64,000 bases of DNA from an uncultured Clostridia bacterium. GTDB lineage: Bacteria; Bacillota; Clostridia; Christensenellales; UBA1242. The translations under genes and the position numbers were made by a program. The notes below the pieces were generated by a model. It had not been told where the DNA came from, did not search any database, and was given only the letters and a program-made list of their open reading frames with translations. The stretch covers positions 27,855-91,854 of the forward strand of contig CALVTR010000006.1 of NCBI GenBank assembly GCA_944362965.1, read 5' to 3'. Numbering within the stretch: position 1 is the stretch's first letter; every line of letters starts with the position of its first letter. This document shows positions 1 to 2,095 of this stretch, one piece after another.

Positions 1-652
1 CAGCAACACCTTGAACAAGCATGCTGTCGCCAATGTCTTTTCTCATAATTTCATTTTGTTCTTTTTGAATTGAAGAAACAATCTGTTTCATCTTGACTGA
101 AACGTTGTGAGAAAGAATCTCTTGCAAGATTTCATCATTGATTGTCATATCGGTATCAAAGTAAGACAAAAGTTGTCCATCTTCTATCTTATATTGTCTT
201 TTAAGCTGAAGTTCTCCGCTGTATTCAGTCTTGCCAATTTTAAAACTAGCGGGACCAAGGTTGTAGTCATAATACATTGAAGAAATAGGGGCTCTCCAGT
301 CTGCAACATAAAGTTTGTTGTCTTCAACAAGGTTGCCAATTCCAATATATACCTTTTGAACAGTTTTTCGATTTTTTGGTAAAAAGTCTATGCGTGCAAA
401 ATATGGATGATCCTTTTGAAGAGTCAATCTCTTGTTTTCTTTGAATACTTCGCTTTCTAACGATTCCACATCTGAAAGGCTGCTATAGATAGAAGAAAGG
501 TCTGTTTGCTTGTCATGAAAGTTCTCAGCAAGGTCACTTACCCCAAGCTTTAAATTTGCTCTGATTGCCTTAAGTTTTTCTTGGCTTTCTTTTATCTTCT
601 TATCTATAATCTTTAATGTTTTTGCAAGATGTTCTTTTTCTTTTATATCCAA
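1..652 (-). CDS. helD: HelD-like UvrD/Rep-family helicase (helicase IV), N-terminal part; gene continues beyond window start
   Basis: Open minus-strand frame from TTG at 652 (GGGGGA RBS upstream) to the window edge. My translation LDIKEKEHLAK...HPYFARIDF...YIGIGNL...VADWRAPISSMYYDY...IQKEQNEIMRKD...MLVQGVAG follows the conserved HelD N-terminal pattern up to the start of Walker A. Absent from the ORF track because it is truncated. Confidence 0.7.
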   Translation of the reverse strand, partial: MDIKEKEHLAKTLKIIDKKIKESQEKLKAIRANLKLGVSDLAENFHDKQTDLSSIYSSLSDVESLESEVFKENKRLTLQKDHPYFARIDFLPKNRKTVQKVYIGIGNLVEDNKLYVADWRAPISSMYYDYNLGPASFKIGKTEYSGELQLKRQYKIEDGQLLSYFDTDMTINDEILQEILSHNVSVKMKQIVSSIQKEQNEIMRKDIGDSMLVQGVA

Positions 653-861
653 TTTGATTTCCCCCTTATATAACAACGTTATCACATAAAATCTTGAATA
701 TTCAGTTAGTTAATAGCAGGGTAATACACAAAATTTTAATTAGTTTTTTAACCTATGAAATGTTGTTTTGATTGCAAATTATAGCATAATAAGACACAAA
801 AGTCAAGGAAGTTGTCTTTTGAATAGAAAAAATTACAAGGTTATTAAAATAAGGTTGCTTT

Positions 862-961
862 GCCCGAGAATTTAAAAACTCGGAACGAGTTTTTAAAGAC
901 AAAACATGCGTTTTGCCTTTTGAAAGAAAACGCAAAAGCGTTTTCTTTCACATTCTCGGGC
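862..961. repeat. Cloverleaf-like palindromic intergenic element, copy 1 (outer stem plus three internal hairpins)
   Basis: Outer stem GCCCGAGAAT (862-871) / ATTCTCGGGC (952-961). Inner hairpins: AAAAACTCG-gaa-CGAGTTTTT (874-894), CAAAAC-atgc-GTTTTG (900-915), TGAAAGAAAACGC-aaaa-GCGTTTTCTTTCA (921-950). Confidence 0.7.
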
Positions 962-1134
962 AAGCCACACCGCTGACGCGGGAGTGAAGAGTGAAAAATG
1001 AAGAGTGAAAAGAGAGTAAGGACGGAATTTATAAAACGGAACAGAAAAACTAGGCGTTATGGACACGCAGGACGATAGTGAGCGGATAATTCGTCCGCTC
1101 TTTTAAATTTTTACAATAAGCCTTAGGTATAGTA

Positions 1135-1266
1135 AATTTGTTTCTCCGCCGCAGGCAAGCGAATGAGTGAATTTTTGAAAAAAATCACAATAGGCAAAAC
1201 ATGCTTTGCCTATCAAAAAACTCACAAGAGTTTTTCATTCGCTTGCCTGCGGCGGAGAAACAAATT
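1135..1266. repeat. Cloverleaf-like palindromic intergenic element, copy 2 (inverted relative to copy 1)
   Basis: Perfect 32-bp outer stem: 1135-1166 AATTTGTTTCTCCGCCGCAGGCAAGCGAATGA pairs with 1235-1266. Three inner hairpins (1167-1189, 1191-1212 TAGGCAAA-acatgc-TTTGCCTA, 1216-1235 AAAAACTC-acaa-GAGTTTTT) are of the same types as copy 1 but in reverse order. Confidence 0.75.
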
Positions 1267-1407
1267 ATAAGTTGAAGTGAAAAAGGAAGGGGTATATAAG
1301 GAAATTATAGATAAAACTTTTCATATAAAGCGGAAATATAAAAATTTATCAATATAAGCTTAAGTTCGCAAATTTTTTTAATTTTTTTAAAAATTTGCTA
1401 AAAATAG

Positions 1408-1435
1408 TTGATAAACATTGCGGGGGGGGTATAAT
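1408..1435 (+). promoter_or_regulatory. Sigma-A-type promoter with a G8 homopolymer in the spacer (candidate phase-variable promoter) for ORF 1526-2095
   Basis: TTGATA (1408-1413), 16-nt spacer AACATTGCGGGGGGGG (G8 at 1422-1429), TATAAT (1430-1435). AGGAG RBS precedes the ATG at 1526. Confidence 0.55.
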
Positions 1436-1525: not shown

Positions 1526-2095
1526 ATGAGTTTAAAATTAAAATTGGCAATGAGTATAAGTGCCTTTTTCTTAGTTCTTGCAATGCTTGTCACAGGCGTG
1601 TTTGCAGCAAGGAACTTAGAGCTTAACTTTGGTGGCACAATAAACTTTGAAGGTGTCAATGGCGAAATTGACGCACTTGTTACAGGAACAGTAACAAACA
1701 CTGCCACACCAATCACACTAGAAGATATATCAATAGAGCAAGGAACTGAAACAGTCACCGTTCCACTATCATGGCAAAACCTAGACTTAACTTTTACAGA
1801 TATCAACCTAATAATTGTAGCAATATATGTTCAGAACAGACGTTCTGATAGAAATTTAAATGCAACTATATCTATGGAAGGGATTGCGATGGAGACTGGT
1901 GTTGGAGAAGATAATGTATATGGTTATACTTTTACTACTGGAACACAACGGGCTCAAACTAAAACGCTTAATCTTACACCAAACCAGTCAGATAGTGTTG
2001 CATTTAGCATACGTATTGTCGATAGATTCACACCTGTTGACAATGTCAACGTAACATTTACAATTTCATTGCAAGATGCAGAGCCAACAGATTAA
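1526..2095 (+). CDS. Secreted or surface hypothetical protein (N-terminal signal peptide)
   Basis: AAAGGAG RBS. N-terminus MSLKLKLAMSISAFFLVLAMLVTGVFAA is signal-peptide-like; the rest is T/N/V-rich and looks beta-rich. A terminator follows. No family recognised. Confidence 0.6.
   Translation: MSLKLKLAMSISAFFLVLAMLVTGVFAARNLELNFGGTINFEGVNGEIDALVTGTVTNTATPITLEDISIEQGTETVTVPLSWQNLDLTFTDINLIIVAIYVQNRRSDRNLNATISMEGIAMETGVGEDNVYGYTFTTGTQRAQTKTLNLTPNQSDSVAFSIRIVDRFTPVDNVNVTFTISLQDAEPTD

Follow-up and report, generated by a model that had tools for sequence, protein, structure and literature searches.

The window analysed here is a stretch of 64,000 nucleotides on one contig (CALVTR010000006.1, here C6) of an uncultured Clostridia bacterium, whose genome assembly comprises 1.37 Mb in 24 contigs at 34% G+C. 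Close to its left end, the 5′ part of helD and a gene for a signal-peptide surface protein lie in divergent orientation, and the spacer between them (686–1525) is modular throughout (Table 1). Two of the modules, designated E1 and E2, are cloverleaf-like nested palindromes, and both were found by sequence inspection and with a repeat finder as an earlier note on this DNA had described them. Below, C numbers denote contigs of this genome and L numbers the sequences compared with it.

Table 1. Features of the left end of the window (positions are those of the window)
Feature	Position	Strand	Basis and remarks
E1 cloverleaf	860–963		closing stem 860–870/953–963; sequence, repeat finder, RNAfold
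E2 cloverleaf	1135–1266		perfect 32-bp arms 1135–1166/1235–1266
E2 core, three hairpins, 68 nt	1167–1234		both orientations among paralogs
Purine-rich multi-copy module	966–1104	+	about 20 copies by blastn; terminator scan
Conserved right flank of E2 module, ATAAGYTGAAGTGAAAAAG...	1267–1352	+	six copies aligned; blastn
A/T-rich tract and poly-G promoter	1369–1435	+	-35 1408–1413, G8 1422–1429, -10 1430–1435
189-aa signal-peptide protein, MSLKLKL...	1526–2095	+	member of the 24-promoter poly-G family
helD, 5′ part (UvrD-type helicase)	2–651	-	open reading frame
Predicted helD promoter	778–806	- (leftward)	TTGACT-17-TATAAT with TG extension; 11/12 consensus matches

E1 and E2 each consisted of one closing stem that enclosed exactly three hairpins. 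The closing stem of E1 was perfect over 11 bp and could be extended to 18 nt at 89% complementarity; inside it were TTTAAAAACTCG-gaa-CGAGTTTTTAAA (871–897), CAAAAC-atgc-GTTTTG (900–915) and a perfect 13-bp hairpin with the loop AAAA (921–950). The core of E2 comprised, from hairpin 1 to hairpin 3, GTGAATTTTT-gaaa-AAAAATCAC, ATAGGCAAA-acatgc-TTTGCCTAT and AAAAACTC-acaa-GAGTTTTT. The two elements were related, with their cores in opposite order, as the earlier note had it; of the three inner hairpin types that it took to be common to both, two were convincing (AAAAACTC and GCAAAAC) but the third hairpins were not alike. Its statement that the outer stems share no sequence was correct for the arms, which were unrelated between subfamilies, but not for a junction-proximal GAAT, which was common to both elements.

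Folding with RNAfold gave a closed four-way junction as the minimum-energy structure of both elements on both strands, with energies of -53.5 and -59.8 kcal/mol for the two strands of E1 and -80.5 and -82.4 kcal/mol for those of E2. The z-scores of the E1 and E2 folds ranged from -9.1 to -15.7, and none of 200 shuffles was equally stable. Since either strand gives the same very stable junction, transcribed copies of such elements could act in either orientation. As regards known families, an Rfam search of E1 and E2 at a permissive E-value gave nothing that reached a gathering threshold (the best scores, from plant microRNA precursors at 48 bits against a 94-bit threshold, were long-hairpin noise), a tRNA scan of the site gave no match, and the elements matched nothing in plasmid and phage collections. 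A T-tract was absent on both sides of E2, and beside E1 there was only CCTTATTTT, on the minus strand. Promoter-like matches in the E2 core were weak (9/12 only), and it contained one internal terminator-like hairpin.

The whole genome was scanned for chains of perfect stems of at least 6 bp separated by gaps of at most 6 nt. This strict scan found 76 chains of exactly three hairpins, 66 of them closed by a perfect outer stem, and a single chain of four hairpins. The same scan of a composition-matched Markov-2 control genome gave no chain of three or more hairpins; 66 closed elements against none in the control exclude chance at the genome scale. A relaxed census with RNAfold gave 85 non-overlapping three-hairpin elements, compared with 18 two-hairpin elements and 1 four-hairpin element. 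These 85 were 76–137 nt long (median, 94 nt) with four helices, and 76 of them left only 0–3 unpaired bases at the junction. Nearly all copies were intergenic, 17 of the 85 lying between divergent promoters, and sequences diverged widely between subfamilies, whose outer arms were unrelated. The closing stems had a polarity: of 65 outer 5′ arms, 51 had GAA no more than 7 nt away from the junction, and not one had TTC there. Strict copies occurred at 4.8 per 100 kb in this genome, and none was found in nine other genomes of which 100 kb each was scanned.

Pairing in the 85 elements was almost entirely of the Watson-Crick type. Among 3587 base pairs, 40 were G·U when the plus strand was read and 30 when the minus strand was read, and in 44 elements all four helices were perfectly Watson-Crick. 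In elements between co-directional genes, G·U pairs were not enriched in the sense reading (14, against 25 in the antisense reading), and the sense fold was the more stable in 25 elements and the antisense fold in 29. That G·U pairs are rare and strand-symmetric indicates a constraint or process acting symmetrically on the duplex.

About 14 copies with GCAAGCGAATG arms made up the E2 subfamily, and six of these shared 25–32-bp arms at 87–92% identity. No relative of E2 was found in 24 congeners and 16 further genomes of the order (40 in all), and by this sequence comparison the E2 subfamily is species-specific. The E1 subfamily had about 5 copies, with outer stems of the GCCCGAGAAT type; relatives of E1 were located by nhmmer at C2:1748, C1:71787, C9:54624 and C17:1553.

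Members of the family recurred in cassettes with the promoter type found in the window. This promoter, TTGAYA-N-G(6–9)-TATAMT, was present in 24 copies in the genome, nearly all of them driving signal-peptide surface proteins that begin “MSLK(V/L/I)KL...”. Cloverleaves occupied two positions in these cassettes: one at -120 to -640, upstream of the promoter, which was that of the E2 subfamily, and another at +65 to +350, within the 5′ leader and in many cases ~20 nt short of the ribosome-binding site, which was taken by other subfamilies. At least 12 surface-protein genes had a cloverleaf in the leader, directly upstream of the ribosome-binding site; the window cassette had a cloverleaf of the upstream type only. 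The E2 module as a whole (terminator-like hairpin, E2 and conserved flank) recurred upstream of poly-G surface-protein promoters. The purine-rich module, which ends in a terminator-like hairpin (1080–1100) followed by TTTTAAATTT, occurred elsewhere too, in cassettes with this promoter, both within leaders and in upstream regions. It adjoined E2 in four cassettes and E1 at this locus only.

The locus was compared among strains and sister lineages. In four contigs of the same species with 99.1–99.6% identity (L128, L129, L131 and L136), E1, itself unchanged, and E2 were present in the window orientation. Intergenic differences from the window seen in L128 were limited to A>T at 1171, by which one hairpin of E2 becomes perfect, a change in a loop at 1225, T>C at 1412 and a promoter tract of G6 in place of G8. 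At 84% identity, L134 and L135 kept the surface-protein gene, the G8 promoter and a segment homologous to the helD promoter, and had ~97 nt where the window has the ~570-bp block of E1, purine-rich module and E2. L120–L127, and L137 at 95% identity, had no cassette at all, helD following directly after gyrA. Since sister lineages do without it, the block is dispensable and was recently acquired or replaced. A clean empty site for a single cloverleaf was not found in these comparisons, where all indels seen were larger mosaic replacements. E1 and E2 lie between the divergent helD (806–778, leftward) and poly-G (1408–1435, rightward) promoters and hence outside both predicted transcripts, and they are not at the 3′ end of any predicted transcription unit.

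In the blockless lineages the gyrA-helD spacer held a different cloverleaf, with the outer stem GGCTGTGAAG and often a T6 after it. By gyrA synteny it was detected in 12 of 80 species sampled (loci L139–L179), and also in L120, L134 and L137, where the spacer cloverleaf, with the outer stem GCTGTGAAG, lies in the helD 5′ untranslated region/gyrA 3′ region; it was missing from this genome. E1 was considered as a positional ortholog of this spacer cloverleaf and rejected, because its place is on the far side of the helD promoter and its subfamily is a different one. The outer stem and two hairpins of the gyrA-3′ cloverleaf were fairly conserved, and the third hairpin was nearly always a different perfect palindrome in each lineage (e.g. 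AAGAAGCC, GGAATGC, GCGGACAT, GGAAAGCG and AAGCCACT).

Covariation within the E2 subfamily was weak, at 81% column identity. Because the E2 copies are young and covary so little, the statistics were done on 11 gyrA-3′ orthologs picked by position and not by fold. In these sister elements, 94.4% of cells were paired, compared with 85.9% after shuffling, and ~40% pairing was obtained in slid controls. Ten of 22 pairs had changed on both sides, a number that none of 500 shuffles reached (mean, 3.2), and one-sided changes of the G·U type were nearly absent (3 cells). Covariation is real at the family level. Two expectations of the earlier note were thereby borne out, namely that paired changes would be seen and that further copies would exist, since these were found both genome-wide and in other genomes.

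Inversions were frequent within this family. When the E2 copies were aligned by their flanks, the core had one orientation in C6 (the window) and C15 and the reverse in C12, C1, C4 and C13; relative to the downstream promoter, the orientations were 6 and 3 copies. Among leader cloverleaves with 10–12-bp arms, the core of C4_53232 was reversed with respect to C4_99279, C1_112457 and C21, and the gyrA-3′ core was reversed in L141 and L143 with respect to 9 others. A single loop could also invert: in L138, a lineage with 94.5% identity, the third hairpin of E1 was changed from TGAAAGAAAACGC-aaaa- to TGAATGAAAACGC-tttt-, a reverse-complemented loop together with a flip of an A-T to a T-A pair. Since cores of the family flip freely between their arms, among E2 paralogs, leader paralogs and orthologs alike, the inversion of E1 relative to E2 carries no meaning, and the two are not a functional pair.

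Homogenisation of inverted-repeat arms and inversion of the spacers between them are attributed to template switching (PMC8604942), and perfect stems are created and maintained by template switching (PMC8794818). Inversion by this route needs no dedicated recombinase. We favour, with moderate confidence, the reading that E1 and E2 belong independently of each other to a large, uncatalogued family of self-maintaining nested DNA palindromes, which owe their form to template switching and some of which serve elsewhere as terminators or leader structures. Template switching during replication between the arms of an inverted repeat would create the palindromes, keep them perfect and flip them, and the main route of spread would be the duplication and recombination of their carrier cassettes. 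That copies share flanking modules indicates spread with the cassettes and not alone. As template switching yields paired changes, covariation by itself does not prove selection for the fold.

In themselves, E1 and E2 are most likely passengers, or at the very most an insulator that would keep stray or read-through transcription (e.g. from gyrA, on the minus strand) out of the two promoters. For the family, T-tracts were scored as at least 5 T in the 8 nt after the outer 3′ arm. They were present at 12 of 24 flanks between convergent genes, at 11 of 55 sense-strand flanks between co-directional genes, as against 3 of 55 on the antisense strand, and at 3 of 34 flanks between divergent genes. 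From this distribution, a subset looks like terminators, in part bidirectional, or 3′-end barriers. Judged by position, then, the RNA roles of the family look like those of a terminator or barrier and of a 5′ leader structure: a transcribed copy would terminate transcription or hinder decay where it lies at a 3′ end with a T-tract, or would be a structure of the 5′ leader.

Palindromes could survive more readily where a nuclease that cleaves them is missing. No SbcD hit above the NCBIfam cut-off was obtained across the genus, which gave weak N-terminal phosphoesterase matches only; hits above the cut-off were obtained in three genomes, from other families of the order. Loss of SbcD as the cause of the expansion was rejected as a candidate, because the whole genus has sub-threshold hits and this does not distinguish the present genome.

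Several findings are at odds with the favoured reading. The high density of copies, which appears peculiar to this genome, calls for a proliferation mechanism. Template switching alone explains neither the strong preference for exactly three hairpins nor the polarity of GAA without TTC, and both hint at recognition or selection. Presence of the gyrA-3′ cloverleaf in at least 12 species is a long persistence for a purely neutral passenger.

If the junction were selected as an RNA fold, as a cis-regulatory leader, terminator or stabiliser or as a small RNA, E1 and E2 would be functional RNA copies. The ortholog covariation, the very stable folds, the many members in 5′ leaders beside a ribosome-binding site and the many at gene 3′ ends with T-tracts enriched on the sense strand are all consistent with this. 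However, G·U pairs amount to only ~1% with no bias to the sense strand, core orientation is freely reversible, Rfam has no matching family, and E1 and E2 are located upstream of both divergent promoters, in a block that is absent from a sister lineage keeping both genes. We regard it as unlikely, and selection on the fold of one RNA strand, for which the earlier note had argued, is not favoured, either in general or at this locus. Movement as MITEs (miniature inverted-repeat transposable elements), the arms being terminal inverted repeats for a transposase supplied in trans and the copies spreading by transposition, had been set aside in that note on the ground that the outer stems are unrelated. 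This ground was sound between subfamilies but not within the E2 subfamily, where arms of 25–32 bp are conserved in at least six copies like terminal inverted repeats; lineage-specific expansion and presence or absence among lineages also speak for transposition. Nevertheless, the lengths of flanking direct repeats equalled those of a shifted control, giving no target-site duplication beyond chance, and no Y1/RAYT transposase (PF01797) was matched in the genome, whereas 6 of 14 control genomes were positive. All genomic matches to E2 arms were element-sized and none flanked a coding sequence; no autonomous insertion sequence (IS) with matching ends was found, nor any match in the plasmid and phage collections, and copies share flanking modules while the arms differ between subfamilies. 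A MITE origin is therefore unlikely.

The flipping of cores also raises the question of an inverton, in which E2, and perhaps every cloverleaf, would be a site-specific switch acting with the poly-G tract in phase variation. Four same-species strain contigs, however, are all in the window orientation, and the two orientations relative to fixed flanks and promoters occur among paralogs and orthologs only. Genes for phase-variable surface proteins do have these elements in their leaders or upstream of them, and eight tyrosine-recombinase domain hits were obtained in the genome, but the nearest (C6:48743) is ~20 kb away and no recombinase gene is adjacent. The core has no strong orientation-dependent promoter or terminator, and inversion of a single loop, or between unrelated 10–12-bp arms, fits a generic inverted-repeat process better; we hold an inverton to be highly improbable. 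The strict symmetry of the two strands, the pairing of all nucleotides with junctions of 0–3 nt, the GAA/TTC polarity of the closing stem and the site between two divergent promoters would suit a DNA structure, that is, a branched cruciform extruded by the negative supercoiling of divergent promoters, or bound by a nucleoid protein, that tunes a twist-sensitive poly-G promoter. This explanation is purely inferential and most improbable, since the sister lineage manages with the same two promoters and no block, and most members are elsewhere, only 17 of 85 lying between divergent promoters. It is very unlikely, too, that the closed junction itself is recognised, by its structure and not its sequence, by a junction-specific protein, and that between divergent promoters the cruciform modulates the twist-sensitive poly-G promoters by supercoiling. 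Such a reader would be a recombinase, a nuclease of the resolvase kind or a nucleoid protein, by which the elements are copied, inverted or extruded, and the three-hairpin rule and GAA...TTC polarity would mark its binding or cleavage site. If so, the palindromes would make up, in gut Clostridia, a new class of DNA element that is addressed by structure.

Further observations were made on the cassettes. The poly-G tract of the window promoter (1422–1429) is G8 here and in L134 and L135, and G6 in L128, which came from another sample; these length differences fit slippage-based phase variation. The surface-protein cassette between gyrA and helD, which in the window comprises 812–1525 and the gene at 1526–2095, was present or absent among lineages 81–95% identical. 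In the window, a 21-nt inverted repeat (1430–1450/1489–1509, 90% complementary) pairs the -10/transcript start with the sequence before the Shine-Dalgarno site, and forms a simple hairpin in the 5′ untranslated region where other cassettes have a cloverleaf. By eye, a possible basic open reading frame (ORF) of 26 codons starts at about 1008 in the purine-rich module. Four long cassette leaders (C8:37653, C9:9481, C13:24653 and C15:1665) contain a small ORF, placed after the poly-G promoter and ahead of the surface-protein gene; its N-terminus (MKDDYIRYTLRLTKEQSEQLK...) looks ribbon-helix-helix-like by eye, and in the C8 cassette it was called as a 52-aa ORF. Short-read assemblies from other samples (Logan contigs L022 and L023) end within the repeated promoter module, at 127 nt upstream of the surface-protein gene, and poly-G cassettes are likely under-assembled in public metagenome-assembled genomes.

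Four perfect DnaA boxes (TTATCCACA) are clustered in an intergenic region at C6:26046–26364, ~1.5–1.8 kb to the left of the window start, just past the 3′ end of helD and near gyrA; the cluster is a possible oriC. Several poly-G leaders likewise have perfect DnaA boxes within them or nearby (C4:39505–39775, C13:24500–24862 and C15:1882).

If the favoured reading is true, shape (a closed four-way junction) and not sequence is what defines a whole class of intergenic elements in a common group of uncultured gut Clostridia. These look like products of template switching and a natural laboratory for its study in replication: their arms remain perfect, their loops and cores become inverted, and the gyrA-3′ cloverleaf has had its third hairpin reinvented repeatedly. 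In such elements covariation would be no naive proof of a functional RNA. Those in the leaders and upstream regions of the 24-member family of phase-variable surface proteins may shape the expression or the recombination of the cassettes. It is at exactly these loci that short-read assemblies break, the Logan contigs ending at the promoter repeat. E1 and E2 would be dispensable members of the family and not a special paired device.

The family may be compared with several known systems. Well-known invertons are the cwpV and flgB switches of Clostridioides difficile and fimS of E. coli. As in these, a short segment close to the promoter or leader of a gene for a phase-variable surface protein is flanked by an inverted repeat, and copies occur in either orientation; unlike them, the present elements have no orientation-specific signal and no dedicated recombinase nearby, and the four assembled strain contigs show a single orientation. 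Compared by eye only with the attC sites of integrons, they have perfect stems without extrahelical bases, and they flank promoters and not ORF cassettes.

REP/BIME/REPIN sequences of Enterobacteria and Pseudomonas (PMC3116915, PMC3184786) are likewise high-copy intergenic palindromes that fold on either strand, lie at transcript ends or between cistrons as possible terminators or decay barriers, and have expanded in particular lineages. By the extragenic-copy criterion used for REP, the present family counts 66–85 copies, nearly all intergenic. A REP, however, is a single imperfect hairpin of ~20–40 nt with a conserved sequence and a cognate RAYT (PMC3116915, PMC3184786), whereas here closed four-way junctions of 76–137 nt are found, with subfamily sequences largely unrelated and no Y1/RAYT gene. 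BOX, RUP and SPRITE of Streptococcus pneumoniae (PMC3049150) are also small, modular, interspersed and structured repeats of Firmicutes, often inside transcripts or leaders and suspected of modulating expression; BOX modules (boxA, boxB and boxC) are defined by sequence and lack a closed stem with exactly three hairpins, and RUP is an IS630-type MITE with target-site duplication. Correia elements of Neisseria and ERIC/IRU of Enterobacteria (PMC3184786, PMC10969869) resemble the present elements as ~100–150-bp palindromes with long terminal inverted repeats near promoters and genes, and as long duplexes that, when transcribed, are plausible substrates of RNase III, as the 32-bp stem of E2 would be. 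Unlike the present elements, which lack target duplications and have an interior of three perfect hairpins, those families are conserved in sequence, and Correia elements also show TA target duplications and contain internal promoter or IHF sites.

Closest in detail are the products of template switching at quasipalindromes (PMC8604942, PMC8794818, PMC7202029), which share with the present elements the homogenised arms, the inverted spacers and loops, and multi-base compensatory changes without G·U intermediates. Template switching is a mutational process and not an element family, and it has not been described as the source of a genome-wide class of three-hairpin closed junctions. The family described here joins the intergenic palindromic repeats (REP/BIME, BOX, ERIC and Correia), and is set apart from them by its closed four-way junction, by a shape that is kept without sequence and by its flipping cores.

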